From: a virus
IMG/VR virus record: IMGVR_UViG_3300045016_000140
Coordinates: 1-64,000 of that record
Direction: 5' to 3' (one strand)
Length of the DNA stretch: 64,000 nucleotides
Each line of letters starts with the position of its first letter. Position 1 is the first letter of the stretch. A program made the translations under genes and the position numbers. This document shows positions 2,463 through 38,252 of the stretch, one piece after another. The notes under the pieces were generated by a model. The model was not told the origin of the DNA. It saw only the letters and a program-made list of their open reading frames with translations, and did not search any database.

Positions 2463-3737
2463 ATGCCAGACATTTTCAAGCCAGGTAAGATAACTTTCGT
2501 TCTAGATGGTGGAGCTGGTTCGTCAGGCAAAGGAATAAGGGCCGCCAATATGTGGAAATATCACAGAGCCCCGCTTACTGCTATAGCTATAAATACCTTT
2601 CTTAGTAACGCGGCACACACAATACAACACGCTGATGGTCGTGAATATGTCCATCAATGTCTTTCAAGCGTTACGACGGTTGATGATAAATGGAATTTAC
2701 AATATCTTGGGCCTGGTTGCGGGTTTGCGGTCGACGAGTTTTTGAGGGATGTTGAACAGTCTAATTTGAGCGATGTTTGTAAGAAGAGTCGCATTAAAAT
2801 ACATCCAAATGTATCAATTGTCACCCAGAAGGATATTGATTATGAGAAGGGATTAGTTAATTTCGACGGTGATAAATCCACTGCTCATGATTCTGCGAAT
2901 TTGAGGATTGGTAGCACTCTGCATGGAGTTGGTGCAGCGAGGGCTAGACGCATATTGCGTCGTCCGGATGCTGTAATTGCTAAAAATGTCCCAGAACTGC
3001 AAAGCTACATTCAGGATTGTGGACCGGTGATTATGTCTAGCTTAGATGACGGGTATTCGGCGCTTGGAGAGATTGCTCAAGGATACCAGTTAAGCTTGTA
3101 TAGTAAATTTTACCCGTGCACGACATCTAGGAATTGTTCTGTAATGGCATTTATGGATGACGCTATGTTGCCTTTGAGATTTGCTGGCCCCGTTGTGTTG
3201 AATTTTAGAACTTATCCGATACGTGTCAATGACAATAAATATGTGCGTAAGTCTGATGACAAAATTCTTACGTGGGATGAATATGCGTCAACGCGCGAAG
3301 ATGATAGAAGGATTGTTGTTGGGTACTCTGGCGGGTGTTATCCGGACCAGCAGGAACTTACGTGGGACCAAATTTCTGAGAGTGCTGGTGAGAAGATATT
3401 TGAATGCACTAGTCTTACGAAGCTTCCGCGTAGAGTGTTTTCGTTTTCTCGGCAGAATATGGATGAGGCTATGATATATAATAATACTGGCGATGATATG
3501 TATCTTAGTATTAATTTTATGAATTATGTTGATGCGTCTGTTAAAGGTAAGAGGAATATTATTGATGTATTAACTCCAAAGGTTAGGCGGTGGTTGTGCG
3601 AGAATATATTCTCGCATGGTTTTTATTCATTTTGTGATAATAATCAGATTAATTTCCGTGGTCTATTTATTGGTACTTGGAAGACGATTGATGATAGTGT
3701 ATATGTTGACGCTGAGGTCATACGGCATTTGCTATGA
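2463..3737 (+). CDS. purZ: PurZ-type adenylosuccinate-synthetase homologue (N6-succino-2-amino-dAMP synthetase)
   Basis: GSSGKG (Ser where PurA has Asp in GDEGKG), NAAHT, YLGPG, GST.HG.G, QGYQLS, RTYPIRV, SG.CYPD, TKLPRRVFSFS, and INF.NY in place of PurA TKLD. Confidence 0.8.
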   Translation: MPDIFKPGKITFVLDGGAGSSGKGIRAANMWKYHRAPLTAIAINTFLSNAAHTIQHADGREYVHQCLSSVTTVDDKWNLQYLGPGCGFAVDEFLRDVEQSNLSDVCKKSRIKIHPNVSIVTQKDIDYEKGLVNFDGDKSTAHDSANLRIGSTLHGVGAARARRILRRPDAVIAKNVPELQSYIQDCGPVIMSSLDDGYSALGEIAQGYQLSLYSKFYPCTTSRNCSVMAFMDDAMLPLRFAGPVVLNFRTYPIRVNDNKYVRKSDDKILTWDEYASTREDDRRIVVGYSGGCYPDQQELTWDQISESAGEKIFECTSLTKLPRRVFSFSRQNMDEAMIYNNTGDDMYLSINFMNYVDASVKGKRNIIDVLTPKVRRWLCENIFSHGFYSFCDNNQINFRGLFIGTWKTIDDSVYVDAEVIRHLL

Positions 3738-4189
3738 AAATAATAGTTGCCACTGGTATAATAGCTGGGAAGCCTACGGCAAATGGGAATATATATTCCC
3801 ATAAATTGCTTATGGATCTGATCTCGAAATATAATAGGACTAATAAATATTCACCCAAAAGCGGTAGTTTGATAAATAGGCAGCATATTCAGCAGGTTGG
3901 TGACATTACCCATACTTGTGGGAGGATATTTATGAATGAATCATCTATGTTGTGCGCTGAGATCAATATATCTGATACCCCTGCTGGTAAGGCAATATTG
4001 GATGCGATATCTTCCGGTAGCGAGGTAGTTGGTAGGCCGATTACGAGTCTTCCGGCGTCTGCCATGAGCCAGAAGACTGGCTCGGAGCCGTTCATAGTGC
4101 CACATATTGACAGAATTATTAGGGTACAGCTAGAAATCAAGGAAAATACCACGGGACTCAAAGAAAAGCCTCCGGAAAATACCACTTAA
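3734..4189 (+). CDS. Degenerate T4 gp21-type prohead protease-like protein
   Basis: ANGNIYS, ITHT and DTPAGK motifs resemble gp21; GELDHP and SSRG motifs are absent. Confidence 0.55.
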   Translation: MKIIVATGIIAGKPTANGNIYSHKLLMDLISKYNRTNKYSPKSGSLINRQHIQQVGDITHTCGRIFMNESSMLCAEINISDTPAGKAILDAISSGSEVVGRPITSLPASAMSQKTGSEPFIVPHIDRIIRVQLEIKENTTGLKEKPPENTT

Positions 4190-4203
4190 GTTAGAGAGTC
4201 AAA

Positions 4204-4395
4204 ATGCTAACTAAAGAAGAAGTTCTAAAGCTGAAACATGAGTGCGCTATGCGTATTCTTGCGGTATATATTAATCGTATTAGTGATAGATATGATGATA
4301 CATGTAGGAATATATATCATAGGTATGTGGTATCCGCTCTCGATGTGGCGGAATTATTTGTCCAGGAATGTATTGATAGGAGTAAAAATGAGTAG
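4204..4395 (+). CDS. Small hypothetical protein
   Basis: 63-aa ORF in operon, overlapping the next start. Confidence 0.5.
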   Translation: MLTKEEVLKLKHECAMRILAVYINRISDRYDDTCRNIYHRYVVSALDVAELFVQECIDRSKNE

Positions 4396-4756
4396 GAGAG
4401 CTAAACCATATATATTTATATATGATGGTAAGTTAATGGAAACATCATCTTTAGCTGAATTATATACTGGGTGCGATAAAGATGAATGGTTAGATATATG
4501 TCGTGAGACAATTGCTAGGTATTGTTTAATGGAGGCTATAGTGCGTTGTAATGATAATGAGGCAGATGACAATGACCGTAAAATTATGAAATCGTTAAAG
4601 CGTACGGTTTTGAGTTTGAAGAAGATAGATCCGATAACTGGTTCTAATTATGATATTAATGCAATCATAGCCAATAATATGAAAGTAATTATAGATAATA
4701 TGGCCATGGATGCACAGCTCAATGTGGTTAAATCAATCAAAGTATCTAGTATATAA
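4388..4756 (+). CDS. Hypothetical protein
   Basis: In-frame ATG at 4388 overlapping the upstream gene end (ORF track start 4238). Confidence 0.55.
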   Translation: MSRRAKPYIFIYDGKLMETSSLAELYTGCDKDEWLDICRETIARYCLMEAIVRCNDNEADDNDRKIMKSLKRTVLSLKKIDPITGSNYDINAIIANNMKVIIDNMAMDAQLNVVKSIKVSSI

Positions 4757-4846
4757 TCAAAGATCAAAAAGATCTTGAGGAAAACGGCAGCGTCTTTGTC
4801 GCACCAAAGGCATCTAAATCCTAATTATCTCTAGCAAATATATTAT

Positions 4847-5035
4847 ATGAAATACATTAAAATACGTAAAATGCGGTCTGTTGACAAAGATGTTCTTGGC
4901 GATGTCACCAAGAGGACTACGCCTGACATTTATATTGGTGGTGGTAATGAGTATAAGCAAGCTGGCGTGGCTGGTGGGTTTAAATTAGTTAAGCCTCGCC
5001 AAGGGCACTCAATGAAGGCAAATTTGCGGAGTTGA
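4847..5035 (+). CDS. Small basic hypothetical protein
   Basis: 62 aa; CAAATATA motif 12 nt upstream of ATG. Confidence 0.5.
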   Translation: MKYIKIRKMRSVDKDVLGDVTKRTTPDIYIGGGNEYKQAGVAGGFKLVKPRQGHSMKANLRS

Positions 5036-5921
5036 GTTGCAAATTTTGTGCAGCCAATAGAATTGCATCTATGCAGTTTTCGTGTGGTAGGTGCGTGAAG
5101 TCATTTAGGAATTCGAATTTGTTATACGACGAGCAGAATACATATTTTGAGCGTATTGTACTTGAGAGGTTTTTAGCGGCCCAGTTGTAGTGAAGAGATT
5201 CGCCTCTGAATCTGCGGACTCGTTCTTCATCCTTGACATCTGGGTTGTGTCCCCAGGGATATAGCTTGCCAGAACGGTCTGTGGCCATGTCGCAGCCGAC
5301 GATGTATATTCTTTCGTGCCCTAGCCATAGTCCTATTTGCATGGATGCGTATACTGTTGAACGTCCGACATATATTCCATCGCGCAAGTTTATACTGAAT
5401 CCCTGGCCAGGGATGCTAGTAAGCACTATGCTGTTTTGTTTGAATTTTTTGATGATATTAGTATTGAATAATATGCCGTCTGTGAATTCATCCCAATATT
5501 TTGCCCAGCGTTCTCTCATTTTATCGTCGCAGAATGTCCAATATTTAGTGGGCCATACTCTATCGTCTGGCTTGTTTATCGACATTAGGTCGATGATTTG
5601 CGAGCTTTTGAGTTTCGGTAGATCTATTTCGCCGTGTGATGGTCCATTGCCGATTATTACGAGTATTCTACCAGCTCCGGTGTTGCGCAACCTATCAATG
5701 GCGGTTGGCGCTGGTGGCGGTGGTTCGTATTGTTCGGCTTTGACTCTGTCAACTATGCTTGGGACTTGTCTGGTGCGTTTTGGTTGTGCGGCGATGACGT
5801 TTCGTATGCTGACTGCCTGCGGCGTTGCCCTGGGTATAGGTTTACAGCGTATTGATTGTACGTCGGCCTTTGTGGCTCGTCTAATGGGTCTAATAGGTAT
5901 GTTCGGTATGTATGGCACCAA
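4989..5921 (-). CDS. DUF115/MptE/Maf-like protein (Rossmann-like, often glycosylation-associated)
   Basis: ILVIIGNGPS, LMSIN and IGLWLGHERIYIVGCDM motifs. Confidence 0.7.
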   Translation of the reverse strand: MVPYIPNIPIRPIRRATKADVQSIRCKPIPRATPQAVSIRNVIAAQPKRTRQVPSIVDRVKAEQYEPPPPAPTAIDRLRNTGAGRILVIIGNGPSHGEIDLPKLKSSQIIDLMSINKPDDRVWPTKYWTFCDDKMRERWAKYWDEFTDGILFNTNIIKKFKQNSIVLTSIPGQGFSINLRDGIYVGRSTVYASMQIGLWLGHERIYIVGCDMATDRSGKLYPWGHNPDVKDEERVRRFRGESLHYNWAAKNLSSTIRSKYVFCSSYNKFEFLNDFTHLPHENCIDAILLAAQNLQLNSANLPSLSALGEA

Positions 5922-6546
5922 TTCCTGCCTTTATGACTTCTATGCTTCTGGTGTTTGGGAGTGGGGTTTTATTAATTATAGCTTCTGTAAGTTTGGATTT
6001 ATTTCTGGTTTGTCGAATTTCTTTGCTTTTAATTGTATACATGATTCTGGTTACTGCTGTTGTGACCAAATTGAAAACAGGAGCTCTTCCAGGAGTATAT
6101 TTGAGTTTACCGCGCAGTATCTTAGAAAGGGCGTGCATTAGTGCGTCATGAGCTAGTTCTTTGCGTTCTTCATCAGTTCTTGGGTGGAACTTTGTGGCCA
6201 CTCCATAACATATTAGGAATAACATATTTACTAATTTTTGCCAGGTTTCGTTTACTGGATTGTCGGGATAATATCCTTGCGTGGCCAATGATTTTTCAAG
6301 ATTTTTGTCCTCGTCATACATCGTCGATGTTATGGCCGCCTTTATCATATTGTTCCGGACTATACCGCAGTGTGATTCGAAAAATACGGGATTTTTCGTT
6401 GCTATGCAGTGTGACATATAATTTTCAGATGGCTTTGACCATAACACATTGGTTTGGCGTAAAACTTCGAGTTGTGGGGTGTTGGATGCCGTTATCCACA
6501 TACCCCATAACTCTTCTAGCTCTTTTGTGTTGCAGTATCTAGGCAT
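5890..6546 (-). CDS. T4 gp55-like sigma factor
   Basis: N-terminal YCNTKEL; ICYGVATKF...ELAHDALMHALSK...PGRAPVFNLVTTAVTR...KEIRQ resembles the gp55 region-2 core. Confidence 0.65.
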   Translation of the reverse strand: MPRYCNTKELEELWGMWITASNTPQLEVLRQTNVLWSKPSENYMSHCIATKNPVFFESHCGIVRNNMIKAAITSTMYDEDKNLEKSLATQGYYPDNPVNETWQKLVNMLFLICYGVATKFHPRTDEERKELAHDALMHALSKILRGKLKYTPGRAPVFNLVTTAVTRIMYTIKSKEIRQTRNKSKLTEAIINKTPLPNTRSIEVIKAGIGAIHTEHTY

Positions 6547-6581
6547 ATTTTTTCAATACATTGAGCGCAGTTGGAGTTTAT

Positions 6582-7907: not shown

Positions 7908-8442
7908 TTTGACCCATCTTGTTCATTTTATTCTTGCGGAAGAACGTCGGCCCCATTCCGGTTGTTGTTGGCACTCGTGGTGCTGGCGTTAGGGCTTGGT
8001 CGATGAATCTAAGCTGCCCGGCTTCTGATTCGCTTAGCGTCCTTAATATGAAAGTGATGATTTCGCGTGGCGTCGCTTCGTTTGCGCTGTGACCTCCGTC
8101 CGTCGGCATCAGTGAGCCATATTTAGCTTCTCGCAGGTCGTTTAAGCTGTTATGCTCCGTGCTTCCGAGGAATTTGCGCAAATTGCCGAGCACGAACATA
8201 TGCCAGTCAATTTTGACGTATCCCGTGCGGGGGTCTATGTCTGCTATGGCCGGGCCAACTTCTACTGTCCCGTGTAATTGGGGAATTGCTTCTGTGATAT
8301 TCTGCAGGGATGGTGGGTATACTCCTTTGTCGAAGTTCTCTGTGGCTCCGATTTGCTCAACGAAATACTTGATAAGTAATCTTTTGGTGATTTCTTTGTT
8401 GAGGTGGCTGCGAATTTTATTGACTAGCGTTTTGTCCATCAT
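7888..8442 (-). CDS. Hypothetical protein
   Basis: 184-aa ORF preceded by CAAATATA on the minus strand. Confidence 0.65.
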   Translation of the reverse strand: MMDKTLVNKIRSHLNKEITKRLLIKYFVEQIGATENFDKGVYPPSLQNITEAIPQLHGTVEVGPAIADIDPRTGYVKIDWHMFVLGNLRKFLGSTEHNSLNDLREAKYGSLMPTDGGHSANEATPREIITFILRTLSESEAGQLRFIDQALTPAPRVPTTTGMGPTFFRKNKMNKMGQIIGHGY

Positions 8443-8460
8443 AATATATTTGCTGGTGCT

Positions 8461-8466
8461 GTATTT
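8461..8466 (+). promoter_or_regulatory. Example of recurrent GTATT(T) putative promoter (gp47)
   Basis: Recurs 13-15 nt before the ATG of gp47, primase, gp55-like and the ORFs at 19363 and 50719. Confidence 0.45.
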
Positions 8467-8474
8467 GATACCAT

Positions 8475-12952: not shown

Positions 12953-12976
12953 TCGAGCATAGCTCAAATATACAAT

Positions 12977-16534: not shown

Positions 16535-19345
16535 ATGGCAGTGTATCTAAGCCCAGGCGTTTACACTCGTGAAATTGACCAGAGCGTTCTACCAAGTGCG
16601 CTTGGTGCGCTCAGGCCAGCACTCATCGGCACCGCCAAAAAAGGTCCGATGAATACTCCAACATTAATCACCAATGCCCAGCAATTCATTGATACATTTG
16701 GTGAGCCAATAACCACCAGCTATCTCGGATATGCTGTATTACAATATCTTGAGGAAGGCACATCTTGCTGGGTGATGCGAATCGGTGTGGAGTATAAAGA
16801 TAGCTGGCCAGCCGGACTAATCAGCGACACAATCGACACCAGCGGCGGGAGAAGCCAAGGCTGGGGCCGAATACCAGTATTCCGCGGCATAGATTACGGC
16901 ACAATATACTTTCGACAAGTCACCACAGCTAACCCAGTCGTACTGCACACTTCCACAGTTTCCGACATAACTTATACCGAAGCAACAGCACCATCATCCG
17001 GTCCCTCATGCATTGCGACCTTGATATTTAGTTCAACGGCGTATACCGGATGTGCCGACGCAGTGTATACGCTTACAATCACTGGCTTGCCTACGTATGC
17101 TCCATTGGAAGGATCGACATATACGGTGACGGACCAGGATGGCGATGTCATTAAGACTGGCACGATCCATGTAACGGGCGGCACCGGCACGATCCCAGAT
17201 GACAGTGTGCCAATCGACATTGGTAGCGGACTTGTTTTCCAGATTAGAGTTAGCAATGGCGTGTCACTAGGAATAGGCGACACATTCACCTTTAGCGCTA
17301 GACCAGACAATAGAACCATGTCGGTGCTGGTTGAAGGCGTCGCTGGCAGTTATGTAATTGCGGCAGGAACGTACACCACTGCCGCGTCGCTGGTCTTAGC
17401 GATGATAACCGCCACCGGTTCTGGCGCTGACATTACTCCCGTAGTTCTGACGAACAGCAGCGGCACGAGCGTTCCAGCTATTAGGACCTCGGCCGCCGGA
17501 AGATGGTTGCAGCTCACTGGCACATGTGCCTTCGCTACAGAGATGGGTGTCTCACAATATACATACGATTTCCCACGAAGTTACATGATTGCCACCAATC
17601 CAGCCCCATATTCAATGACCACAAGTAACAATGAAATAGTGATGGACGTCATCAGCAATACTTCAACGCGGACATTTGATTTCTATGTCGCCACTGGCTC
17701 ACATGTAACCGTCGCATCGCTGGTTGCTCAATTCAATGCCAACAACACATACAGCGGTGCAACATACTTTAACGCCGTCGAACTTACCATTCCTGGTGGG
17801 ACTACCAGGATGGTGGTCACAACGGACGTGACCAATTACATGTCGCAACTCAAGATGCAGGCGACGTTCGTTTATGTCAAATGCCTTCGATTTACTGACG
17901 AAGTCGGCATTGATTACCCATTTACAAGTTTCTATCGTGCCTTCACGGATACTCGTCGCGTTTTACCAGAGGCAGGGCACACAACTCCGAGCACGCCGTA
18001 CTCGTGCGAGCTTAACCCATTGAGCGCTCAATGTGCGGTTGACACAGCATACTTTGCGAACATAGTTGGATGGGTTGTTGCCAAGTATGCTGGCACATGG
18101 TCGAGCAATTATTCCATCACCCTTGAGCCATATGTTGAAGGCACTGGCGATGTAGCCGGAAGATATAAGATAACAGTCTACGATAATTATAACCAGCCAG
18201 TTGATGTAGTTAGCGATGTAACATTCATTTCTACCGACACAAGATATATCGGCAACGTTGTGAACGCAGGAAGTACGATTGGCGGTGTAAACGGCAACTC
18301 ATATTACCAATGGGAGATGAGGCCAGCCGCGCTTATCGACACTTCCGACCCACGATATCCAGGCGCACTCTATGACAAAGCGTTCACCGGCGGAGCTAAC
18401 GGCATACCGAGCATCTCGACGTATAGCTCAGAACTTGACAATGCCGTGATTGGTAACCCGGCTACTGGTTCAGGATTATATGCCCTGCAGAATCCTGAAG
18501 CGTATGACTTTAACCTCTTGATAATTCCGGGATTCACGAGCGGTGCAGTCATCGGCCAGGCTCTGCAGTTCTGTGAAAACCGTGGTGACGTGCTCTTCCT
18601 AGTTGACTCACCATATGGCTTGAAGCCACAACAGGTAATTGAATGGCACAATGGCATGCTAGTTAGCGATCTAGCAGCAGCCATCAATAGTTCATATGGC
18701 GCATTATATTGGAGCTGGCTCAAGATATCTGACCAGTTCAACGGTGGAACAATATGGGTCCCGCCATCGGGTGCAGTTGGTGCGGTTTTTGCCCGTACGG
18801 CCAGGGTTGCTGAGCAATGGTTTGCTCCGGCTGGTGTGAATAGAGGTAGATTGCTTACGGCCATCGACATCGAGTACAACCCATCGCTTGGCGAGCGCGA
18901 TAACCTCTATGGGTCAGGAAACGCCGTTAACCCGATCACTAAGTTCACCCGTGATGGCATAATGATCTGGGGTCAGAGGACGCTGCAACGGACATCGTCT
19001 GCTCTTGATCGTGTGAACGTTAGAATGTTGCTGATCTATATTAAGGTTAACTTGCAGCGCGTCTTGCGAGCCTTTGTGTTTGAGCCTAACGACAGCATCA
19101 CGCGAGCACAAATTACGGCAGTGATCAAACCATTCCTGGCGGATATTGCGGCAAGGCGAGGGTTGACATGGTATCAAGTGATTTGCGATGTCACAAATAA
19201 CACGCCCGAACGGATCGATCGAAACGAGTTATGGATTACCGTTCTCCTCCAGCCCACGCGGGCGGCAGAATTCTTGGTCCTCAACCTTGTGGTGCTCAGG
19301 ACTGGCGCAAGCGTGGGTACTTCCGAGACTGTTGCGACTGTGTAA
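16535..19345 (+). CDS. Contractile tail sheath protein (gp18-like)
   Basis: YLSPGVYTREID, GP.NTP, WFAPAG.NRG, WGQRTLQ, LDRVNVRML, FVFEPND; AGGAG SD. Confidence 0.97.
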   Translation: MAVYLSPGVYTREIDQSVLPSALGALRPALIGTAKKGPMNTPTLITNAQQFIDTFGEPITTSYLGYAVLQYLEEGTSCWVMRIGVEYKDSWPAGLISDTIDTSGGRSQGWGRIPVFRGIDYGTIYFRQVTTANPVVLHTSTVSDITYTEATAPSSGPSCIATLIFSSTAYTGCADAVYTLTITGLPTYAPLEGSTYTVTDQDGDVIKTGTIHVTGGTGTIPDDSVPIDIGSGLVFQIRVSNGVSLGIGDTFTFSARPDNRTMSVLVEGVAGSYVIAAGTYTTAASLVLAMITATGSGADITPVVLTNSSGTSVPAIRTSAAGRWLQLTGTCAFATEMGVSQYTYDFPRSYMIATNPAPYSMTTSNNEIVMDVISNTSTRTFDFYVATGSHVTVASLVAQFNANNTYSGATYFNAVELTIPGGTTRMVVTTDVTNYMSQLKMQATFVYVKCLRFTDEVGIDYPFTSFYRAFTDTRRVLPEAGHTTPSTPYSCELNPLSAQCAVDTAYFANIVGWVVAKYAGTWSSNYSITLEPYVEGTGDVAGRYKITVYDNYNQPVDVVSDVTFISTDTRYIGNVVNAGSTIGGVNGNSYYQWEMRPAALIDTSDPRYPGALYDKAFTGGANGIPSISTYSSELDNAVIGNPATGSGLYALQNPEAYDFNLLIIPGFTSGAVIGQALQFCENRGDVLFLVDSPYGLKPQQVIEWHNGMLVSDLAAAINSSYGALYWSWLKISDQFNGGTIWVPPSGAVGAVFARTARVAEQWFAPAGVNRGRLLTAIDIEYNPSLGERDNLYGSGNAVNPITKFTRDGIMIWGQRTLQRTSSALDRVNVRMLLIYIKVNLQRVLRAFVFEPNDSITRAQITAVIKPFLADIAARRGLTWYQVICDVTNNTPERIDRNELWITVLLQPTRAAEFLVLNLVVLRTGASVGTSETVATV

Positions 19346-19362
19346 AGACGTATTTAAATGAT

Positions 19363-21105
19363 ATGAATGAAACTTCAAACGCCCCACTAATTGATTTTAG
19401 TGGGGCGTTTTCATATCCGAAAACAACATGGGTGAATATCAAATGCGTGAAATGCGACATTGTGCAGTATCGTAAGATAACATCTGTCCGTAGCAATCTT
19501 AAAAGGAATAGTAATCAATATATATGTCATAAGTGTGCCATCACAGATCCAGAATATGTTCAAAATAATTTGATCAAACATCCTAAGACTGGTAGCAAAT
19601 GGGATTCTAAGATAGATGTTGTCTGTTCTGGGTGTCAGAAGAAGTATAAGATTACTTATCGTGGGTATATGCAAGCTGGCGGGAATGGGAAAGTCAGGTG
19701 TAGGTCTTGTGCAAATTCCGAGGCGCATGCTTCTGGGAAGTTTAATATATATGACGAGGATTTCAAGAATAAGTTGAAGGAGAATAGTGAAAAGTTCTGG
19801 GACGAGAATAGGGGTAGGTGGCGGCAGAAGATGGGGCATATGTTTGACAGCGAAGAATATAAGAGATTAATGAGTGAATATGGTAAGAAGCCGTGGTCTG
19901 ACCCAATATATCGTGAGAAGATGTTGCAGTTATGCGATAACCCGGAACATAGAGCTATGATTAGTGAACGATTTAAAAAGATGTGGGCAGACACTAAATT
20001 TCGCGATAGGATGATGAAACTATATGGCACTAGTGAATGGCGTAAGACAGTAAGTGATGCCGGAAAAATTCCTTGGAGCAACCCAGAATTTAGGGCTATG
20101 AAGATTAGAACTGCTTCTGATGACGGGAAGAGAGCTTGGCTTGTCCCAGGTTTTCGTGAGAAGATGGCCATTGTTCGATCTCAGCAGCCTAGATGTTCTA
20201 GTTTGCAGCTGACGTTATATTCTATTTTGGATGATTTAGGCGTTAAACATTATAGGGAGTATATGGATAAGCCAGCGGATAAGGAATGTATTATTGGGCC
20301 GTGGACGTTCGATAGTGTGGTCATTCGGCCTGGGCAGAAAGATTTATTAATTGATGTGAATGATGAGTATTGGCATGGTAGTCCTAAGGTTATAGCCAAA
20401 GATGCGGCTAAGGCTTCTTATGTCGCCAATAATTTATCTCATAAGTATGAGCTAAAGTATTTGTGGGGTAACGATTTTATTCAGAAGGATAAGGTTGTTG
20501 AAACCATTAAATATTGGCTTGGCATCACTAAGATGCAGGCTATTGATTTTGATTTCAAGACAGTGGCGATTAAGCCATCGCCGTCTAAGGATTATAAGCC
20601 GTTGCTGGCTAAGTATCATTATCTTCCGAATGCTGGTAGAGGTGGGATTGTATATGGTGGATATATCGGGGAGGTTTTAGTGTCTGCTTGCGTGTTTTCA
20701 CCTCTTATTCGTCAAAATATTCATGATAAGCTTGGGTGTGCATATTCTGAGGCTTGCGAATTATCTAGGTTATGTGTTCATCCGATGTACCAGAAGCATA
20801 ATTTTGCCTCTTGGTTTGTGAGTAGGTGCATTAAGTCATTGCCCAAGAAGTATAGAGTTGTTGTATCGTATTGTGATACTACTTTTAATCATAACGGAGC
20901 TGTATATAAGGCTTGTAATTTTGAATATGCTGGTGAGATTAAGCCTGATTATTGGTATGTCGACGCTGATGGTTGGACTATGCATAAGCGGACTTTATAT
21001 GGCCGGGCTGTGAAGTTGAGGATATCTGAGGCTGATTTTGCCAAGAAGTATGGCTATATTAAGGTATATGGTGGTAAGAAGTTGAGGTTTATTTATCGGA
21101 GATGA
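19363..21105 (+). CDS. Homing-endonuclease-like mosaic: Zn fingers, helical repeats, Vsr/PD-(D/E)xK-like domain and Mom-like GNAT domain
   Basis: Several CxxC pairs; W..PE(F/Y)R repeats; WTFD...LIDVNDEYWH; KYHYL...ELSRLCVHP...VVSYCDTTFNHNGAVYKACNF...PDYWY. Confidence 0.75.
   Translation: MNETSNAPLIDFSGAFSYPKTTWVNIKCVKCDIVQYRKITSVRSNLKRNSNQYICHKCAITDPEYVQNNLIKHPKTGSKWDSKIDVVCSGCQKKYKITYRGYMQAGGNGKVRCRSCANSEAHASGKFNIYDEDFKNKLKENSEKFWDENRGRWRQKMGHMFDSEEYKRLMSEYGKKPWSDPIYREKMLQLCDNPEHRAMISERFKKMWADTKFRDRMMKLYGTSEWRKTVSDAGKIPWSNPEFRAMKIRTASDDGKRAWLVPGFREKMAIVRSQQPRCSSLQLTLYSILDDLGVKHYREYMDKPADKECIIGPWTFDSVVIRPGQKDLLIDVNDEYWHGSPKVIAKDAAKASYVANNLSHKYELKYLWGNDFIQKDKVVETIKYWLGITKMQAIDFDFKTVAIKPSPSKDYKPLLAKYHYLPNAGRGGIVYGGYIGEVLVSACVFSPLIRQNIHDKLGCAYSEACELSRLCVHPMYQKHNFASWFVSRCIKSLPKKYRVVVSYCDTTFNHNGAVYKACNFEYAGEIKPDYWYVDADGWTMHKRTLYGRAVKLRISEADFAKKYGYIKVYGGKKLRFIYRR
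19377..19411. terminator. Intrinsic (possibly bidirectional) terminator after the sheath gene
   Basis: Perfect 14-bp stem aaacgccccactaa/ttagtggggcgttt with 6-nt loop. Confidence 0.8.
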
Positions 21106-21142: not shown

Positions 21143-21595
21143 GTGGAGCGTAGTATGAATGATGCCCTGGTTGCTAATGCCATTTTTGGATCGGTTGACA
21201 ATCTGCGGCTGCTTCTGGTCAAGAGGTTGGAAATTGCTCGAGCAAAGGTGAAGCTACTTCCTCAGCAGTTAGAAGATCGTTGTCAGATGGGCACACAGGG
21301 CTTACCTTCGTGGTCAGAACTTCAGGCGCGACCTGAATTGCTCGACAGTGAAATGCTTTCACGCTTGCTGGCTGGGTTGCATTGCGGGTTGGACGAGTTG
21401 CTCGGCGGCGAAATTTCGGCTTATCTGGCTTTTAACATAGTGGGATCTGGGGCATTGCCTAGGCCACTTTTCATTCTTATGCAATTGATTGAAGAGCTCG
21501 ATGCTCGGGCCGTCCCGCGATCACGATTGCGTCAATGGTGGGATTGTCAGGTGGCTAATGTTCATCGATGGCTGGGTAGACCTCGATGGAGGTAA
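21143..21595 (+). CDS. XRE-family HTH-like protein (divergent)
   Basis: RLEIARAKVKLLPQQLEDRC...LSRLLAGLHCGLDELLG resembles an HTH_3 fold; GC-richer than its neighbours. Confidence 0.45.
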   Translation: MERSMNDALVANAIFGSVDNLRLLLVKRLEIARAKVKLLPQQLEDRCQMGTQGLPSWSELQARPELLDSEMLSRLLAGLHCGLDELLGGEISAYLAFNIVGSGALPRPLFILMQLIEELDARAVPRSRLRQWWDCQVANVHRWLGRPRWR

Positions 21596-21650
21596 TTATT
21601 GGTCGTCTGATTCGTCAGCCTGTGGTCTAGCCTGCGATATTAGTTTTGGA

Positions 21651-21773
21651 CACCTTTGGCTAGAAATAGAATCAACCATAATTAAAAGTCTAGAATATGC
21701 ATATTATTACGCTCGATCGAGATATTTTGGATGCCCTTGGCCAGAAGCAGAACTAATTATAGCTCAAAACTAA
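21651..21773 (+). pseudogene. Remnant 3' end of a 26-aa-repeat gene paralogue
   Basis: Reads HLWLEIESTIIKSLEYAYYYA...CPWPEAELIIAQN*. Confidence 0.7.
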
Positions 21774-21837: not shown

Positions 21838-23207
21838 ACATCGCACAAACCACAACTAGATTCACTAGCCAAACAATTTGGCAAAACCCCACAAGAAATA
21901 ATTGTATTAGTAGAACCCATCACGGATGTTGTAAGATATGTAGAATGGATACTTAGACAACTCAAAACGCACATAATTAGACTCCCAGAAGACACAGATA
22001 GGATTAAACAACTATTAATAGATTTTGATCATTATAAATCTATAGGTTCAGCCAACATTAATAAAGATATAGGATCCTATAAAACCATCCATGACCTAGA
22101 AACCGTAATCGATAAACTCAAAGGTGTAGATCTTAAAGGTCGGGCAGAAACACGCCAAGAGTATCGAGCGGGAACACAATGGGTCAACGAAAGCCAAAAC
22201 TACAAAATTCTCAAAATCACAACACCCGAGGCTGCCGCCCACTACGCCACAAATACTAAATGGTGTACAAGCAAACTAGAGACAGCAAAAAATACCTTGA
22301 GAGAGGACCACTCTACATAATCTTTAAAAAATTAGACGGAAAACTTGAGAAACTTTACCAATACACACATAATTATTCACGATTTATGGATATACTAGAT
22401 AGGTCAATACGGCCAGATGAAGAAATACAGCAATTAATCAAACCACCGCTAAGCTCCGAACCAGTAATTCTAGTTGGATTTTGTGTGCTTATAGATTCTC
22501 GTTGGCTCGAGGCAGAATCAATCATAGCTAAAGACCCAATATCGGCATACTATTATGCTCTAGATATCTTAGAACGTCCCTGGCCAGAAGCAGAACCAAT
22601 CATAGCTAAAAACCCAAAATGCGCACACCATTACGCTATGTATGTCTTGAAACGTTCCTGGCCAGAAGCAGAACCATACATAGCTCAGAATCCATTCTGG
22701 GCATACCATTATATTTCGGATGTCTTGAAACGTCCTTGGCCCGAAGCAGAACCAACCATAGCTCAAAATCCAGAATGTGCATACCATTATGCTCAGAATA
22801 TCTTGAAAGAGCGTTTCTCTGAAGCAGAATCAACTATAGCTCAAGACGCATACTTTGCATACCATTATGCCAAAGATATCTTGAAAGGACGTTTCCACGA
22901 AGCAGAACCATATATAGCCAAGGATCCGGAATGGGCGTACTGGTATGTCCGAGATGTCTTGAAACGTCCCTGGCCAGAAGCAGAACCATACATAGCTAAA
23001 GACCCAGAATGGGCATACTATTATGCTCAAGATGTCTTGAAACGTCCCTGGCCAGAAGCAGAACCATACATAGCTAAAGACCCAGAATGGGCATACTATT
23101 ATGCTCAAGATGTCTTGAAACGTCCCTGGCCAGAAGCAGAACCAACCATAGCTAAAGATCTAAAATGTTGGACTCAATATAAACAACGTTTTAATATCGA
23201 AAATTAA
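21799..23207 (+). CDS. WCT-motif phage protein with nine 26-aa C-terminal repeats, split by a -1 frameshift at an A6 tract (ORFs 21799..22320 and 22260..23207)
   Basis: Joined reading TKWCTSKLETAKKYLERGPLYII parallels TTWCT...HYLSTGSGPLYLI in the intact paralogue 53627..54775. Confidence 0.8.
22497..23204 (+). repeat. 78-bp coding tandem repeat, 9 units (consensus RPWPEAEPYIAKDPEWAYYYAQDVLK)
   Basis: tggccagaagcagaacca recurs at 78-bp spacing; units 7 and 8 are identical. Confidence 0.95.
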
Positions 23208-25732: not shown

Positions 25733-25734
25733 AT

Positions 25735-26442: not shown

Positions 26443-26449
26443 GGTGTTT

Positions 26450-27142: not shown

Positions 27143-27199
27143 AATTGGTGTGGTAAATAATTTCGACACATTGTGCACGTTAATGGTAAAGGTAAACCA

Positions 27200-28379: not shown

Positions 28380-28393
28380 GTCAAAAATATTGT

Positions 28394-29173: not shown

Positions 29174-29199
29174 TTTCTTGACAAGTATTGTAATTTCAG

Positions 29200-30489: not shown

Positions 30490-30503
30490 GAATTATTATA
30501 TTA

Positions 30504-30560
30504 TGTTTGAGGGTGTTTGAGGGTGTTTGAGGGTGTTTGAGGGTGTTTGAGGGTGTTTGG
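30504..30560. repeat. Intergenic 10-bp tandem repeat (tgtttgaggg, ~5.5 copies)
   Basis: Directly visible. Confidence 0.95.
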
Positions 30561-30619
30561 TAGCGTTTGTTTAAGGAGAATGCTGGAGTAATGTAAATAA
30601 AATATAGAGTGGGTGTTTT

Positions 30620-32113: not shown

Positions 32114-32123
32114 GGTAAGCAAA

Positions 32124-34778
32124 ATGGCCGAAACGCCAGCATATGACATAAATAAAGATGCATTGTCTGATGCCATACAGATGACAGCGCAATTACATAC
32201 TGGCTATTCACAAATAGTTGGATCTCTAGGGCAAGCTTATGAAATTCAAGATCAACTATTAAACAGCGCCGTGAACCTTAAGAGTCAAGTCCAAGACCTT
32301 TATAATACTGTAGACGTGGTACGCAGATCATGGGGTGATTTTCAGACCGATTTCGCGCGAATTAATTATGATGCGACAAAGTTGAATAAAGATCAAATTA
32401 TAGCCAATCAGAAACAGATAGAACAATTAAATCAAATGCTTAATGATGCCGAATTGAAAGAGCATTTGCATTATAAAGAAGTCGATGCTTTAAGGACGCA
32501 ACTTGTAGAACGCATGAAGATTAACAAAGCGGCTGTTGAAGCCAATTCGCTGATGAGCCGATTTGGCGTCATTATGAAGAACATCGGGCTTGAAAAAGTG
32601 CATGATAGCATTAAAGGATTTACCACATTAAAGGGAGTGATGGCGTATCTGGTTCTGCAAATAAAAGGTTTAATTGATATGGCCGATAGATATAGATATA
32701 TTAACAATCAGATGTATGGCAATACTGTTGCCATGGCCAGGACAGTCGCCAGGGTGCAGATGCAAGCTGGCGTGCTCGCCGATGAGGCACGGGCGGCGTA
32801 TGAGGCCTTGCGTGATGTTGCCATAGATCCAACAATTATTGAGGCATCTGCCAGGGCATTGGCTGAATTCGCGGCCGAGACGGGTATAGCTGCTGAGGTT
32901 GGCGCATTATTTGCCAAGAGAGTTGAAGCGATGGGAATGTCGTCCCAGGTCGCTCAGATGCAATTTAATTATATTAGGGCTTCGATGCAGAAGTTTGGTT
33001 TGACAGCCCATGATTCTGCGGCCATAATGGGATACATGAACAAGAACATCTTCTTATTAACCAATATAATGGGTAAAGCTGGCGTCGCTAAGTTTGGCAA
33101 AGAATTCGCGTTGTTGTCTGGTTTTGTTAAGGTGACCGGTGGCGATATAGCTGAATTTGTCAGTCTAATGGAGGAAATGACTGAGAATGCCGAGAAGTTT
33201 ATAGTTGGCATTGGCAGTGCGTTCATGCTTGGAGACCCAGCCGAGAGAATGGCTGTGCTGATGGATAGGTCCGGGGCCATGGTGGACCAGTTAGCGGGGA
33301 TACCAGCCGTTTTTAGGCCCGGAATATTTAGGGATATGTTTGGCGTCAGTATTAATCAGGCTGAGCAGTTTAAAAAAGTGGCCGAGTTTGTACGCACGAA
33401 ATATGGCAAGAGTGTTCAAGAAGTAATGAGGGATTTGCGAGTTGGCGGTAAAAGCGCCGCCGAGGCGATGGCACAATTAAATAAGGAATTTCAGATTGCG
33501 GAATTGGTCACAAGACGCACTGCCTCTGGTGGTTATGATTATAAAGTTGCGCTTGATACGATAAACATGGCTGCTCGCGAATTGGTTGGTAGAGTGATAG
33601 AGCCGCTTGTGAGGCTATTAGATAAACTAGCACAGATGTGGCTGATGCTTAATGAACCTACGAAAAAAGCCATTGGCGTCATTGGTCTTGCGGTTGTTGC
33701 GTTTATAACATTAACGTTCATTGTGATTAGGGTAATGAGAACGATTGCGTTGTTTCAATCGGTTTTTGGCATAGCCTCAAGAGCAATGGCTGCTGACGCC
33801 GCTGTTACTAGCGCTGGCGTTGCCACCGGTGCTCAGACAATGGGTAGGGCTATATCGTGGGATATAATTGCGAAGATAGCCGCCTTGGCAGTGGTTGTTA
33901 TGGCCATTGCAACTGCCATATGGATGCTGGCTAAGGTTCCAAGAGATGCATTAATTGACATTGGTTTATCGATTGGAATTGTAGCAATTGGATTGGCTGT
34001 GATTGGGTCGGCAGCGACGGGGGCCGCTGTGCCATTATTGGTGTTAGCGCTAGTGGTGGTTGCCATTGGTGCTGCCATATGGTTGGCGGCCACTGGCATT
34101 TCTAGTATGGCTATGTCGTTGGCTGAATTGAATGGCGTTGATGTATGGGGTTTGGGTTTTGCGCTTGGTGCGCTCGCTGCCGCTATGGTTGGACTGGCGA
34201 CGGTTACTCCATTCTTATGGATCAGTTCATGGTATATGGGCGGGGTCGCGCGGTCAATCAAGACGATGTTAATGGCGGCGCAAAGCAACGCCGCAGGAAT
34301 AAATGTGCTGAAGACTTTCGCCGAATCTATTACAATGATTATGAAAGGCGAGAACTTCCTATATACAAATAGGTTGAAAGAATTAGCCGTCGCCTTATCT
34401 GATTCATTTGGGATGCTTAGTAATAATCTCAAGACATACGCTTTTGACATTGAAAATGTAGCGTCTAGAATAAACAGAGCAATAAGTAGTGCGACTGAAA
34501 AGCTTAAAGAATTTAATGCGAATCAGCCGAAAGCAGTAGCTTCCGAAATAAAGGTTGGCTTTGATGTTAGTACATTGGATGTTCAGAAAGGGCAGATACA
34601 TAGTATGGATAATTTAAGTAATGCCATCAATAAATTATTAGACAAGATTAATAGTATTGATATAGCCGGTAGCAAAAATACGGTTGGCAGCATTCTCGGT
34701 GAATTGAAGAAATATTTACCGACCATGGCCGAACAGAAGGATACTCCCCTTGGGAAGCCACAGGGTAATTGGGCTTAA
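32124..34778 (+). CDS. Tape measure protein
   Basis: 884-aa Ala-rich helical protein with hydrophobic segments, in the tail cluster. Confidence 0.8.
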   Translation: MAETPAYDINKDALSDAIQMTAQLHTGYSQIVGSLGQAYEIQDQLLNSAVNLKSQVQDLYNTVDVVRRSWGDFQTDFARINYDATKLNKDQIIANQKQIEQLNQMLNDAELKEHLHYKEVDALRTQLVERMKINKAAVEANSLMSRFGVIMKNIGLEKVHDSIKGFTTLKGVMAYLVLQIKGLIDMADRYRYINNQMYGNTVAMARTVARVQMQAGVLADEARAAYEALRDVAIDPTIIEASARALAEFAAETGIAAEVGALFAKRVEAMGMSSQVAQMQFNYIRASMQKFGLTAHDSAAIMGYMNKNIFLLTNIMGKAGVAKFGKEFALLSGFVKVTGGDIAEFVSLMEEMTENAEKFIVGIGSAFMLGDPAERMAVLMDRSGAMVDQLAGIPAVFRPGIFRDMFGVSINQAEQFKKVAEFVRTKYGKSVQEVMRDLRVGGKSAAEAMAQLNKEFQIAELVTRRTASGGYDYKVALDTINMAARELVGRVIEPLVRLLDKLAQMWLMLNEPTKKAIGVIGLAVVAFITLTFIVIRVMRTIALFQSVFGIASRAMAADAAVTSAGVATGAQTMGRAISWDIIAKIAALAVVVMAIATAIWMLAKVPRDALIDIGLSIGIVAIGLAVIGSAATGAAVPLLVLALVVVAIGAAIWLAATGISSMAMSLAELNGVDVWGLGFALGALAAAMVGLATVTPFLWISSWYMGGVARSIKTMLMAAQSNAAGINVLKTFAESITMIMKGENFLYTNRLKELAVALSDSFGMLSNNLKTYAFDIENVASRINRAISSATEKLKEFNANQPKAVASEIKVGFDVSTLDVQKGQIHSMDNLSNAINKLLDKINSIDIAGSKNTVGSILGELKKYLPTMAEQKDTPLGKPQGNWA

Positions 34779-34790
34779 TAGGAGTATGTT

Positions 34791-35744
34791 ATGCCGTTAA
34801 CTGAAGTTGATCAGCGAATGTTACAAAGAGCAAGATTAACGCTTGATATGAACATCGCGAACATTACATCAAAAATTGTGAAAAGAAATGATCCAGTCGT
34901 CAAAGCTCCGACTACGGCCCCGGCCCCGGCTCAAACTCAACCCAGCTCATTTTGGAGAGCATTGACTGCAATCCCCGATATAGGTACAGTCTCTGCGATC
35001 ACTGCGGCTGGTGTGGTCATTAAAAAATTGACAAATCCGACAGACGCCAAAAAAGAAACTGCCGACATTACTGAATATGAACACAGCACCACCAGCAAGA
35101 CAGTGCGCATACCGTTTCAATATCCAGTGATTATTGTTAGTGACAATAAAGAAGGTGACTGGAAAGAATTTCAAACTCGTCAAGCGGAACCAATCGCGAT
35201 ATATATGGGTGGTAAAGCGAGAACCATAGAATTAAAATGGTCATATATAATTAATAATGAAACGTGGCCAGATAATTTTGTGAATGTGCAGACTTGGGAT
35301 GCTAGAACAATATCGACGATTGTGAAATTGCTTAGAGGACAATTTTATACTTCTGCTCTAAGTGGATTAATCGTACGATTTTGGGCTTATGACATAATTG
35401 GACCAAATACAGGTATGTCGTATACATTTAGAATGGATTCTTTAAAGATAAGTCATAGCGACACCATGGTGTGTTCAGATATGAGCATAGAAGATCAAAA
35501 AATACAAATTATGGTAGCGGGATCGCCAGGCGAAGCACAAGTGCCAATTAAGACTTTTTATACATACCCATTGAGAACAGATATAGCGGCTACGCTTAAA
35601 TTTTATGTTAATTCAATGCCCAAGGATGAAAATGTGTTTGGTGAAAGCTACAAACCTGGTGCCGGTGAGAAACTTAGTAGTGAATCTGCCATAAAAGTTA
35701 TCGAGCTCGGCATGCCGGTTCCCAATGAAATAGAGTGGTTTTAA
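34791..35744 (+). CDS. Putative tube-initiator / baseplate protein
   Basis: Between tape measure and gp53; FQYP...W...RQAEPIAIY.GG.ARTI motif. Confidence 0.55.
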   Translation: MPLTEVDQRMLQRARLTLDMNIANITSKIVKRNDPVVKAPTTAPAPAQTQPSSFWRALTAIPDIGTVSAITAAGVVIKKLTNPTDAKKETADITEYEHSTTSKTVRIPFQYPVIIVSDNKEGDWKEFQTRQAEPIAIYMGGKARTIELKWSYIINNETWPDNFVNVQTWDARTISTIVKLLRGQFYTSALSGLIVRFWAYDIIGPNTGMSYTFRMDSLKISHSDTMVCSDMSIEDQKIQIMVAGSPGEAQVPIKTFYTYPLRTDIAATLKFYVNSMPKDENVFGESYKPGAGEKLSSESAIKVIELGMPVPNEIEWF

Positions 35745-36037
35745 TGGCAATAGATGTAACATCGCGATTTAAATACACGCCCTATATAAAATTTGGCGGC
35801 CAGACCACATATGGACTTTGGGTAAAACCACGATTCATGACCGCCGCAAGATATACAACATATAAAGTATATAGTGGAATGGGTGGAAGATTAGATTTAA
35901 TATCAGACGATGTATATGACACCCCAGATTTATATTGGGTAATAGCGATGTTCAATAATGTACGAACGCTCAATTGGCCGCCGGTTGGCGTAACTATAAA
36001 GATACCACTAAAGGAGGATATACTTTACGAGTTCTGA
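35744..36037 (+). CDS. Baseplate wedge protein (gp53/LysM-like)
   Basis: GRLDLISDDVYDTPDLYWVIAMFNN...G..IKIP. Confidence 0.85.
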   Translation: MAIDVTSRFKYTPYIKFGGQTTYGLWVKPRFMTAARYTTYKVYSGMGGRLDLISDDVYDTPDLYWVIAMFNNVRTLNWPPVGVTIKIPLKEDILYEF

Positions 36038-38252
36038 CCCAGCCCTCAACAATATCTGGAATTCATTCGTAGAGAACCGAAACCAAAGGATAACCAATCG
36101 GTTCCCGGGTATGTATCGCGCAATTGTGGTGGAGACTAATGATCCACTACAAATGCACCGTGTGCGGTTCAAATGTCCAGAACTGCATGATTATAATACT
36201 AAAACGGAAGATTGTCCATGGGCCGTTCCCGCCAATGATCTTGGCACCAAAAGATGTGGAAGATGGTCATACCCATGCATAGGCGACTGGGTGTGGATAC
36301 AATTTGAGAAAAATCATCCATATGGTCCGGTTTGGACTGGATTTGCTGACCCAACAAGGCGTAAATTCTATACACTGCCATCCATAAGCGGCCCGACGCC
36401 ACGACCAGTGGATGCGCAAGGTACGCCATTGGATGAATCACCGGATGATTATGATGTAGACTATCTTCCGGCCGACGGGCGGCCGATGTCTCACGGTTGG
36501 CAGGATAGATATGGCAATCTTGATATGCATAATTCAGTTGGGTTCTTCCCGATTGAGCATGCGGCTTCACCGCCAAGGAATCTAGATACTGACAATATAG
36601 GCGGTAACTCTAACGCTAGATTTGTGCAGCAAGAGAATGCTCCAGTTGCAAATAACCCGGATTCTAAATATATGTTGAGGATGACCAAGTACGGCCATAT
36701 GGTATTGCAGTCCGACTCCGGGTATTTGTGGCAGAATGAATTCAAAGGTGATTTTGAGCAGGATGAAACGTTTGAGATAAATAGATGGAAATATTATCAA
36801 AGATTAATTCATGAGGATAAACCGTCTGGACATGATGAACGAAGATTGATGTTGTTAACTAGATATGGTCACAAATTTGAATTAAGGGATGTTGGGTGGA
36901 ATATATCTCGCAGTGGTGAATTTGGTCCCTCTGTCTCGCTGTCCAGCGGTGCCAAAGATCAACGGTGGATAAAGTTAAGGTCTAAGGGTGGGCATTTAAT
37001 TGAACTATGTGACATTGGATCTGATCCGATGAATGATGAATATGTTCAAAGAAGCCTAATGGATGAGTTAGATGGAACTAAGATATATATGCGATTATCA
37101 GATAGAGCAATATTGACGGAAGATGAGTATAATAATACTCCGGCCAATAATCGTGAGATGATTGTTGTTGGGGATAAAGAGGAAAAGTTTGAATCTGACG
37201 CCAGGTTTATTAGGATGGTGACCAGGTCGGGCATTAAAATGGCGATAGATGACAGAGGCAGCGACAGCACAAAAGCGCAAGATAAGAATTTGGAGAATGA
37301 TAAGATTGGCACTGGTGTGCTCATTAAAGGCAGGGCCACACCGGCTGGTAGAATACTTGATTCAGATGGCGTCCATACTGAGAATTCATATCCTAATAAA
37401 TCTGGCGATCCGGTTGGATATTATTGGCAAATAAATGAACATTCCGATTATAATTGCACTGATTGGGGAAGTCCGCTTGGGCAAGTTATTGAAATGAACG
37501 ACAATGATGAGGTACTAACAATTTGCACTGGGCTTGTTGATTTGCCATCTAAGTGGGAGGGTCTGGAAGATAATGAATTTTTGCTATATACTGCCAATGC
37601 AATGGAACCAATGGCCAATACCCATCATTTAGTGTTGAATCATCGCAATGAATTCATAAGATTAAAGTCTAGGGCTGGCCATGGCGCAGCTCCATATGCC
37701 ACCGATAAAACGCCAGTTGATGGTGAATTCCAGGGTTTGGAAATTCATGACAGTGCGGCGTCACCATGGGTTGAATTAGTTGATTATCAGCACCGTGGGC
37801 TATGGTTTAGCGGGCAATATGGCATCGGTGTGTTAAGGGCGAAGGCCGACAAGGATATAATTATATGGTATGATGATACCAATGACAAGATAGTGATTAG
37901 GAATAATACTGACAATGGACGCGTCCAGATATATTGTGCTGGGAATGTCGATATAGTTAGCGATAAGGATGTCAATATATCTGCGGCTAACGATGTGAAT
38001 ATCCAGGCTGGTGGTAGTGTTAGATTGAAGGCTAGCGCCTTGTCGGGTGATCCGGGTTTGGCTACGTTAAATGCGTTGTCTTTCGACACTAATCGTGATG
38101 TTATGGGTATGTCTATTCTTGGGTTTTTCCCGCAGATAAATAATGGTGATGGCGGTCCTCCTGGTTGGGCATGCGGTAATGGTGAGGATATGGAGAATGT
38201 GGATGTTGAATCAGTTCCAGACGTCGTTGAGCCTGATGATAGAGCTACATAA
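36027..38252 (+). CDS. Baseplate central spike (gp5/VgrG, OB-fold); probable ACG start at 36027, first ATG at 36111
   Basis: YRAIVVETNDP..RVRFKCPELH...CPWA.P...P.IGDWVWIQFE...P.W.G; repeated T..GH beta motifs; AAGGAGG SD 9 nt before the in-frame ACG. Confidence 0.85.
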   Translation, partial: TSSDPALNNIWNSFVENRNQRITNRFPGMYRAIVVETNDPLQMHRVRFKCPELHDYNTKTEDCPWAVPANDLGTKRCGRWSYPCIGDWVWIQFEKNHPYGPVWTGFADPTRRKFYTLPSISGPTPRPVDAQGTPLDESPDDYDVDYLPADGRPMSHGWQDRYGNLDMHNSVGFFPIEHAASPPRNLDTDNIGGNSNARFVQQENAPVANNPDSKYMLRMTKYGHMVLQSDSGYLWQNEFKGDFEQDETFEINRWKYYQRLIHEDKPSGHDERRLMLLTRYGHKFELRDVGWNISRSGEFGPSVSLSSGAKDQRWIKLRSKGGHLIELCDIGSDPMNDEYVQRSLMDELDGTKIYMRLSDRAILTEDEYNNTPANNREMIVVGDKEEKFESDARFIRMVTRSGIKMAIDDRGSDSTKAQDKNLENDKIGTGVLIKGRATPAGRILDSDGVHTENSYPNKSGDPVGYYWQINEHSDYNCTDWGSPLGQVIEMNDNDEVLTICTGLVDLPSKWEGLEDNEFLLYTANAMEPMANTHHLVLNHRNEFIRLKSRAGHGAAPYATDKTPVDGEFQGLEIHDSAASPWVELVDYQHRGLWFSGQYGIGVLRAKADKDIIIWYDDTNDKIVIRNNTDNGRVQIYCAGNVDIVSDKDVNISAANDVNIQAGGSVRLKASALSGDPGLATLNALSFDTNRDVMGMSILGFFPQINNGDGGPPGWACGNGEDMENVDVESVPDVVEPDDRAT

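Follow-up and report, generated by a model that had tools for sequence, protein, structure and literature searches.

A thirty-residue loop of a phage PurZ enzyme has a homologue, probably a secondary in-frame copy, in the linker of a gp5-like spike protein

PurZ enzymes are distinguished from PurA by a Ser that replaces the catalytic Asp of the PurA P-loop (GDEGKG to GS-x-GKG) (PMC12884076). S-2L PurZ carries, in addition, a PurZ-specific insertion of nine residues (A242-W250) right after R240-V241; this insertion is said to push V241 toward the C2' of the deoxyribose, where the Val contacts dGMP (PMC8342488). Here, we analyzed a 64,000-nucleotide stretch of viral DNA (positions 1 to 64,000 of IMG/VR record IMGVR_UViG_3300045016_000140; hereafter, the window) that encodes a PurZ with an enlarged loop, which we call the module. 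The module occupies the fold site of the S-2L/phiVC8 PurZ loop, right after R-V of the PIRV motif, and is likewise a PurZ-specific addition relative to PurA. Whereas S-2L PurZ has nine residues there, the module has ~30, with a hairpin, a helix, and a strand of its own, and is conserved in a large metagenomic clade of long PurZ proteins from large phages. A segment homologous to the module occurs in a second, unrelated protein of the window, a gp5-like spike protein, within the linker that joins its two halves. We put at about 0.65 the probability that part of a purZ gene was copied secondarily, and in frame, into gp5 and that this copy is a tolerated passenger rather than a functional tag shared by the two proteins. 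The features concerned are as follows.

2463..3737, + strand: purZ gene, 424 amino acids (aa); a PurA-fold open reading frame (ORF) with a PurZ-type GSSGKG P-loop
3231..3326, + strand: PurZ module; residues 257-286 are lacking in phiVC8 PurZ, and residues ~259-288 are common with gp5
36111..38252, + strand: gp5/gpV-like central spike or baseplate hub gene, 713 aa from the first ATG; PF04717 oligonucleotide/oligosaccharide-binding (OB) domain
37083..37172, + strand: putative PurZ-derived insert in gp5, aa 325-354, ~28 extra residues; in the linker that joins the N-terminal half to the beta-rich C-terminal half

The resemblance had been noticed in a first-pass annotation of the window. Translation of positions 3240-3323 and 37086-37172 returns exactly the two peptides that it quoted, and its count of 16 identities holds with a one-residue gap. 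From pairwise comparison alone, the match is marginal. Single-pair BLASTP gave 28 bits (E 8e-4), and in an all-against-all comparison of the 79 ORFs of the contig, the PurZ-gp5 pair (E 0.047) ranked only sixth, amid chance pairs of 25-29 bits. We built a hidden Markov model (HMM) of the segment from the 57 closest of 119 aligned metagenomic PurZ homologues, with every window sequence excluded, and used it to search every ORF in the six frames of the complete contig (74,669 bp). With this model, the contig's own PurZ scored 54 bits and gp5 36.2 bits (E 2e-10); the next non-PurZ match reached 5 bits (E 1.1), leaving a gap of 31 bits. The N-terminal and C-terminal halves of the segment contribute about equally to the gp5 score. 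Because a family model free of window sequences recovers gp5 at this significance, with both halves contributing, the two segments are judged to be homologous and not alike by chance, and the similarity proposed at first pass is thereby borne out. Searched in isolation, neither the PurZ segment nor the gp5 segment matched Pfam.

The earlier remark on codons, namely that many identical residues are encoded differently and that this speaks against a fresh DNA copy, proved half right. The overall nucleotide identity of the two segments is 58%, and there is no fresh copy; the codon is, however, also identical for 9 of the 16 identical residues, where codon usage predicts 6.6. On both counts (nucleotide identity, 58-66%), a recent copy at the DNA level was rejected.

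By all the sequence criteria that we tested, the 424-aa protein qualifies as a PurZ. The PurZ of Z-genome phages is further characterized by activity on dGMP with aspartate and by companion genes (datZ, mazZ, dpoZ, or equivalents). It matches Pfam PF00709 (E 1.3e-11) and PHROG 1211 (2-aminooxy adenylosuccinate synthetase). Its P-loop (GSSGKG) aligns with GSTGKG of phiVC8 PurZ, with Ser in place of the Asp of PurA (GDEGKG), and the Ser column is invariant in PurZ alignments. The AlphaFold2 model of the protein has a predicted local distance difference test (pLDDT) score of 94.8. In a Foldseek search of this model against the PDB, the phiVC8 PurZ structures (6TNH, 6FKO, and 6FM1) came out on top (E 3e-26), S-2L PurZ (7ODX) matched with an E value of 9e-23, and PurA structures ranked behind those of PurZ.

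The module adjoins the PIRV motif of PurZ on its C-terminal side. A phmmer search against the PDB broke the alignment to phiVC8 PurZ into query residues 10-256 and 286-370. The phiVC8 chain has no break where the alignment splits (query 256/286; phiVC8 residue 257), so residues 257-285 read as a clean 29-residue insertion relative to phiVC8 PurZ. In the model, they fold, at a pLDDT of 93-96, into a beta-hairpin with arms at 259-262 and 267-269, followed by a short helix (271-276) and a strand (282-285). The segment was found in all 119 long-PurZ homologues (43-62% identity). Other PurZ proteins differ in length at this site: PurZ of Acinetobacter phage SH-Ab 15497 and of Bacillus phage vB_BpsS-140 has an 11-residue hairpin there, and PurZ of Flavobacterium phage MaF61 (PQ858689.1) has the same module with ~35 further residues at the hairpin tip. 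Loop lengths are thus graded (0 in phiVC8, then 9, 11, 30, and ~65 residues), which suggests growth in place rather than the arrival of a cassette. We regard the long-PurZ module, on the alignments and the model, as a native, clade-wide, predicted well-folded, and enlarged version of a length-variable PurZ loop. The short loop that the first-pass annotation had given for S-2L-type PurZ agrees with the published A242-W250 insertion (PMC8342488). As the MaF61 enzyme illustrates, the hairpin tip of the PurZ loop is itself a hot spot for insertions and deletions.

The recipient is a gp5-like protein, whose residues are numbered here from the ATG at 36111. It matches PF04717 (baseplate-V/gp5 OB domain) at residues 2-78 (E 4e-12) and PHROG baseplate hub families at residues 2-85 (PHROG 430) and 566-643. 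More than 400 homologues share 42-55% identity with it, one of which is named baseplate assembly protein V by its source. The C-terminal half of its model is beta-rich and of high confidence; a Foldseek comparison of the monomer model with the PDB returned no significant whole-chain fold match. All 119 gp5 protein homologues that we aligned (42-55% identity) lack the insert stretch, and the PurZ-segment HMM matched none of 74 IMG/VR gp5 loci (best score, 6 bits). Between conserved anchors, the gp5 loop measures 59 aa in the window, against 30-41 aa in 64 IMG/VR loci. Hence, each segment is an insertion in its own protein, as the first-pass annotation had proposed: in PurZ relative to phiVC8 PurZ (aa 257-285), and in gp5 relative to every homologue examined. 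Closer gp5 relatives with the insert were sought by a shorter-protein search on aa 300-380 and by a scan of JGI metagenome contigs with six 8-mer peptides, and none was found. The insert is modeled at a pLDDT below 55, and its sole secondary structure is a helix (337-341) that corresponds in position to the helix of the PurZ module. The two copies can accordingly be compared in fold only at this short helix, which they share, the gp5 copy being of low confidence in the model.

Two further observations concern gp5. One homologous locus (IMGVR_UViG_3300042197_003393) is ~650 nucleotides longer than the others over the matched range and may hold a different large insertion. The other observation bears on the gene start. 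Homologues of gp5 begin with ~27 conserved residues (consensus M-SDNL..VW..FF..RT..L..RFPG). In the window, the in-frame sequence that precedes the ATG at 36111 encodes these residues, in an extension that reaches ~36027 and whose translation agrees with the N-terminus of the homologues. There is no ATG, GTG, or TTG within this upstream in-frame stretch (window positions 36009-36113). An ACG at 36027 aligns with the Met of the homologues, and a strong AAAGGAGG lies ahead of gp5 at 36009-36016. Probably, either translation of gp5 initiates at a non-canonical codon or its start has been miscalled.

The insert is present in natural lake-water populations. It is covered by contigs from the runs of four lake-water samples (2018, 2019, and 2025), and both of its junctions are spanned in two runs, besides one run that may be the source of this DNA. 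Among the contigs of the lake-water runs, there is no deletion joint that skips the insert. An assembly chimera is ruled out because the insert differs from purZ in 42% of its nucleotides; moreover, assemblies from JGI, ENA, and Logan all contain this 713-aa protein in identical form, and the insert is covered by the run contigs. An intein was also considered and rejected. Inteins have at least ~130 residues, splicing blocks, a nucleophile at the N-terminus and at the +1 position, and a terminal His-Asn; the insert has ~28-30 residues, starts with Ile/Tyr, and ends with Val-Val-Gly, followed by Asp.

One contig, from a 2019 run (depth ~17), has three differences from the window within gp5. Two are synonymous; the third (37155 G>T) changes Glu349 (GAG), inside the insert, to an amber codon (TAG) with an ATG directly after it. 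If real, this variant may split gp5 in the linker or be defective; it may also be an error. No tRNA gene occurs in the window that could supply a suppressor.

The direction of transfer follows from the distribution of the segment. Because it is found in 119 of 119 long PurZ proteins and in none of the 119 gp5 homologues or 74 gp5 loci, the transfer must have run from a purZ to gp5. Its source is a close PurZ subclade to which the window PurZ also belongs. The gp5 copy scores 36 bits against this subclade, the nearest to it, and 21.5 bits against the whole long-PurZ clade. In a tree of the 30-residue segment, the gp5 copy falls inside the close subclade, within an enclosing clade of Shimodaira-Hasegawa-like support 0.90; the inner nodes are weak, as expected with 30 columns. 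The best PurZ matches of the gp5 copy, P0025 (19 of 29 residues identical) and P0035 (18 of 29), are both members of the subclade. The window's own PurZ ranks only 32nd of 120 because the middle part of its segment has diverged. A run of 12 identical nucleotides, ATTGTTGTTGGG (Ile-Val-Val-Gly), is common to the gp5 copy and the phage's own purZ only, a weak hint that the phage's own ancestral purZ was the donor. Taken overall, the most likely donor is this ancestral gene, or possibly the purZ of a close relative. Compared with four purZ genes (the phage's own and three from IMG/VR), the gp5 copy has a nucleotide identity of 47-66%, and the synonymous positions are scrambled; because of this, the copying event appears to be old or its donor unsampled. 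As an aside on this clade, P0035 (a long-PurZ homologue, 60% identity) is deposited under a Candidatus Nitrosocaldus metagenome-assembled genome, on a 120-kb contig. Most probably, binning has placed a viral contig in an archaeal genome; otherwise, the record is a hint at the hosts of this phage group.

We suggest the following course of events. In the long-PurZ clade of large phages, the loop after PIRV would have grown into a 30-residue hairpin-helix-strand excursion and become fixed in the enzyme. In the lineage of this lake phage, ~84-90 nucleotides encoding the excursion would then have been inserted into the length-variable interdomain linker of the central spike, most likely through illegitimate recombination or template switching during break repair or replication. 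The copy could have persisted since it comprises whole codons and kept the reading frame that it had in the donor. The excursion would be self-contained: the residues flanking it are adjacent in phiVC8 PurZ, so its two ends must meet in space, and it would fit the loop of another protein. After insertion, the copy would have diverged in nucleotide sequence from the sampled purZ genes, with which it is now 58-66% identical. We infer both the mechanism of the transfer and the neutrality of the copy. The target linker is permissive, ranging from 30 to 41 aa among gp5 homologue loci, with a pLDDT below 55. In addition, homing-type nucleases are encoded at several places in the contig, one of them a LAGLIDADG ORF that immediately precedes purZ, which makes frequent breaks and repair likely.

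Several points weigh against this reading. First, no junction microhomology beyond ~3-4 nucleotides is visible, the 3' junction having only a GAT (Asp) in common with purZ; the event is too old for the junctions to be read. Second, no closer relatives were found with which to date the event or to measure selection. Third, the copied stretch matches the extra part of PurZ (relative to phiVC8) to within 2-3 residues at each end. A random fragment would rarely match the ends of the excursion, and the coincidence would also fit a discrete portable unit or a functional epitope; we attribute it to a tolerance filter, in that only self-contained excursions sit in the loop of another protein. Fourth, the peptide is 60-66% identical to PurZ consensus-like sequences despite the scrambled synonymous sites, and this conservation is compatible with purifying selection, which would imply function. 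By a rough neutral estimate, a nucleotide change of ~18% gives the observed peptide identity, with about even odds that no stop codon arises, and this estimate is not rejected by the data. Fifth, the first half of the module recurs as repeats in an unrelated small protein (P0243, described below) and may thus be a recurrent supersecondary motif.

The strongest competitor of the passenger reading, though we consider it unlikely, shares the same origin and differs in what came after: the copy would have been kept since the peptide acts in the spike. With the same binding surface as the PurZ loop, it might recruit PurZ or a partner of PurZ to the baseplate; alternatively, it might serve in assembly or host interaction. 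Compared with three purZ genes, codon position 2 of the copy is more conserved than position 1, and position 1 more than position 3, as expected of conservation at the aa level, but constraint on PurZ alone can produce such a pattern. What was copied is an entire structural excursion and not an arbitrary piece; nevertheless, the insert is modeled as disordered except for one helical turn. The insert recurs in lake water sampled in 2018, 2019, and 2025, and none of the contigs is a deletion variant, yet one of these population contigs has the amber codon inside it. Related phages, moreover, manage with the loop in PurZ and none in gp5, and the neutral estimate above is compatible with the observed peptide identity.

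Less probable still, and in our judgment quite improbable, is a portable in-frame cassette, a selfish mini-element that would have come to PurZ at an early date and to gp5 more recently, on both occasions from a third source. There is a precedent for this in Rickettsia palindromic elements (RPEs), small mobile elements whose in-frame insertion into unrelated genes is documented (PMC10969869). The stretch common to the two proteins also equals the inserted stretch in both hosts to within a few residues. The sequence around the gp5 insert, however, holds no direct or inverted repeats of at least 8 nucleotides, and the RNA/DNA fold of the insert is unremarkable (z-score -0.8). Six frames of the 74.7-kb contig contain no further copies of the module beyond those in PurZ and gp5. 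We searched the module profile against five related viral records, two of which are complete genomes (320 and 341 kb): four of the five have one copy per genome, always in PurZ, and the fifth, with a more divergent PurZ, has no module candidate. With terminal repeats, a significant fold, and further copies all absent, a mobile element is unsupported and was rejected, and with it the in-frame mobile element that the first-pass annotation had offered. Its other suggestion, a portable tag placed symmetrically in two proteins, fares no better, as the module is native to long PurZ clade-wide and this gp5 alone has a copy.

A library-wide phmmer search with the 37-aa insert as the query, against 1.84 billion representatives, returned a single match at E ≤0.001. 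That match, P0243, is a 93-aa metagenomic protein from a Logan contig of 1,680 bp. It has three tandem repeats, Y-x-R-(K/I)-S-D-G-x-x-x-S-E-x-E-Y, which resemble the module over its first 16-17 residues; nothing in P0243 matches the second half, and the protein belongs to no Pfam or PHROG family. No other family matched the insert at this threshold, below which PurZ itself falls, so weaker third families are possible. P0243 could be taken to favor a cassette with a third source. The gp5 copy, however, has features that are derived within a single PurZ subclade, among them the C-terminal half missing from P0243, and the graded lengths of the PurZ loop argue in the same direction. We take P0243 as a sign of a recurrent local motif (a hairpin and a helix cap) and not as a donor.

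A more specific proposal is that the PurZ-derived loop on the spike linker is a docking epitope, either for PurZ itself (the hairpin might, for instance, pair with its counterpart in the PurZ dimer) or for a partner of the loop, so that PurZ or the partner would be carried in the baseplate and delivered with the DNA. We hold this to be very unlikely; the gp5 copy lies in a linker-like stretch that is modeled with low confidence, which makes a docking, packaging, or localization role, as raised at first pass, less likely. Finally, chance or convergence on a common local structure (an SDG-type-turn hairpin followed by a T/S-x-x-E helix cap) would be in keeping with the pairwise BLASTP score, which is no better than that of several chance pairs in the contig, and with the recurrence of the first half of the motif in P0243, but is very unlikely given the profile E value of 2e-10 and its 31-bit margin, the colinearity over both halves, including the NxTP...RE-I-x-GD tail, and a match that falls exactly in the stretch that no other gp5 homologue has.

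Two side observations concern other genes of the window. The LAGLIDADG ORF upstream of purZ (783-2393, - strand) resembles, in its C-terminal 190 residues, the C-terminus of an ORF that lies behind the sheath gene (19201-21102, + strand; 54 bits, E 3e-10); the domain in common is a non-nuclease domain present on two different nuclease-type genes. The neighboring ORFs at 21489-21770 and 22260-23204 have a common repeat of ~26 residues (PWPEAEP-IAKD ... YYYA), of which the larger ORF (22260-23204) holds about nine copies, and this larger ORF gives a repeat-type match to Pfam HTH_35.

Phage mosaicism is usually described for whole genes or domains. The locus analyzed here would extend it to a sub-domain piece of ~29 residues that moved, in frame, from an enzyme of nucleotide metabolism to a virion protein with no relation to it. 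The statistics resolve the donor, the recipient, and the direction alike, and what the event produced persists in the lake-water populations of 2018, 2019, and 2025. If our reading is correct, a structural protein can accept into its loops a ready-folded excursion that another gene of its genome encodes, which would be a route to new surface features. Meanwhile, the PurZ side offers a newly described 30-residue elaboration of the PurZ-specific loop, next to the deoxyribose-discriminating Val and present in a large PurZ clade of big phages, as a target for enzymology. We found no description of a long PurZ loop, or of an enzyme-derived loop in a spike protein, in open-access text, and we know of no spike protein that carries an enzyme-derived loop. 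Were the copy functional, it would link Z-DNA metabolism to the virion; were it a docking site, it could give the phage a head start in Z-base synthesis on infection.

Among described systems, the recipient resembles the spikes T4 gp5, P2 gpV, and VgrG in its N-terminal OB domain (PF04717) and its beta-rich C-terminal part. Such spikes end in a C-terminal beta-helical needle. The window protein differs from T4 gp5 proper, which has a lysozyme domain; Pfam detected none in the window protein. In its position, the linker with the insert is reminiscent of the exposed linker at which T4 gp5 undergoes cleavage during assembly. The insertion itself is like those derived from RPEs or miniature inverted-repeat transposable elements in that a short stretch (~30-50 codons) lies in frame in an unrelated gene, apparently on a tolerant surface or linker. 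RPEs, however, are multi-copy and palindromic and form families of their own, whereas here there is one secondary copy, with no palindrome or repeats, and the putative donor is an ordinary enzyme gene.

A further parallel is ectopic templated insertion or fragment capture. In the templated or filler-DNA insertions seen at repaired double-strand breaks, and in the illegitimate recombination of phage mosaicism, a short ectopic piece is copied to a distant site. As in those cases, a colinear donor is found in the same or a related genome, and the relatives of the recipient lack the piece. Templated insertions are usually seen as fresh, near-identical, and mostly disruptive; the gp5 copy, in contrast, would be an old one, in frame, read in the frame of its donor, and fixed in a natural population.

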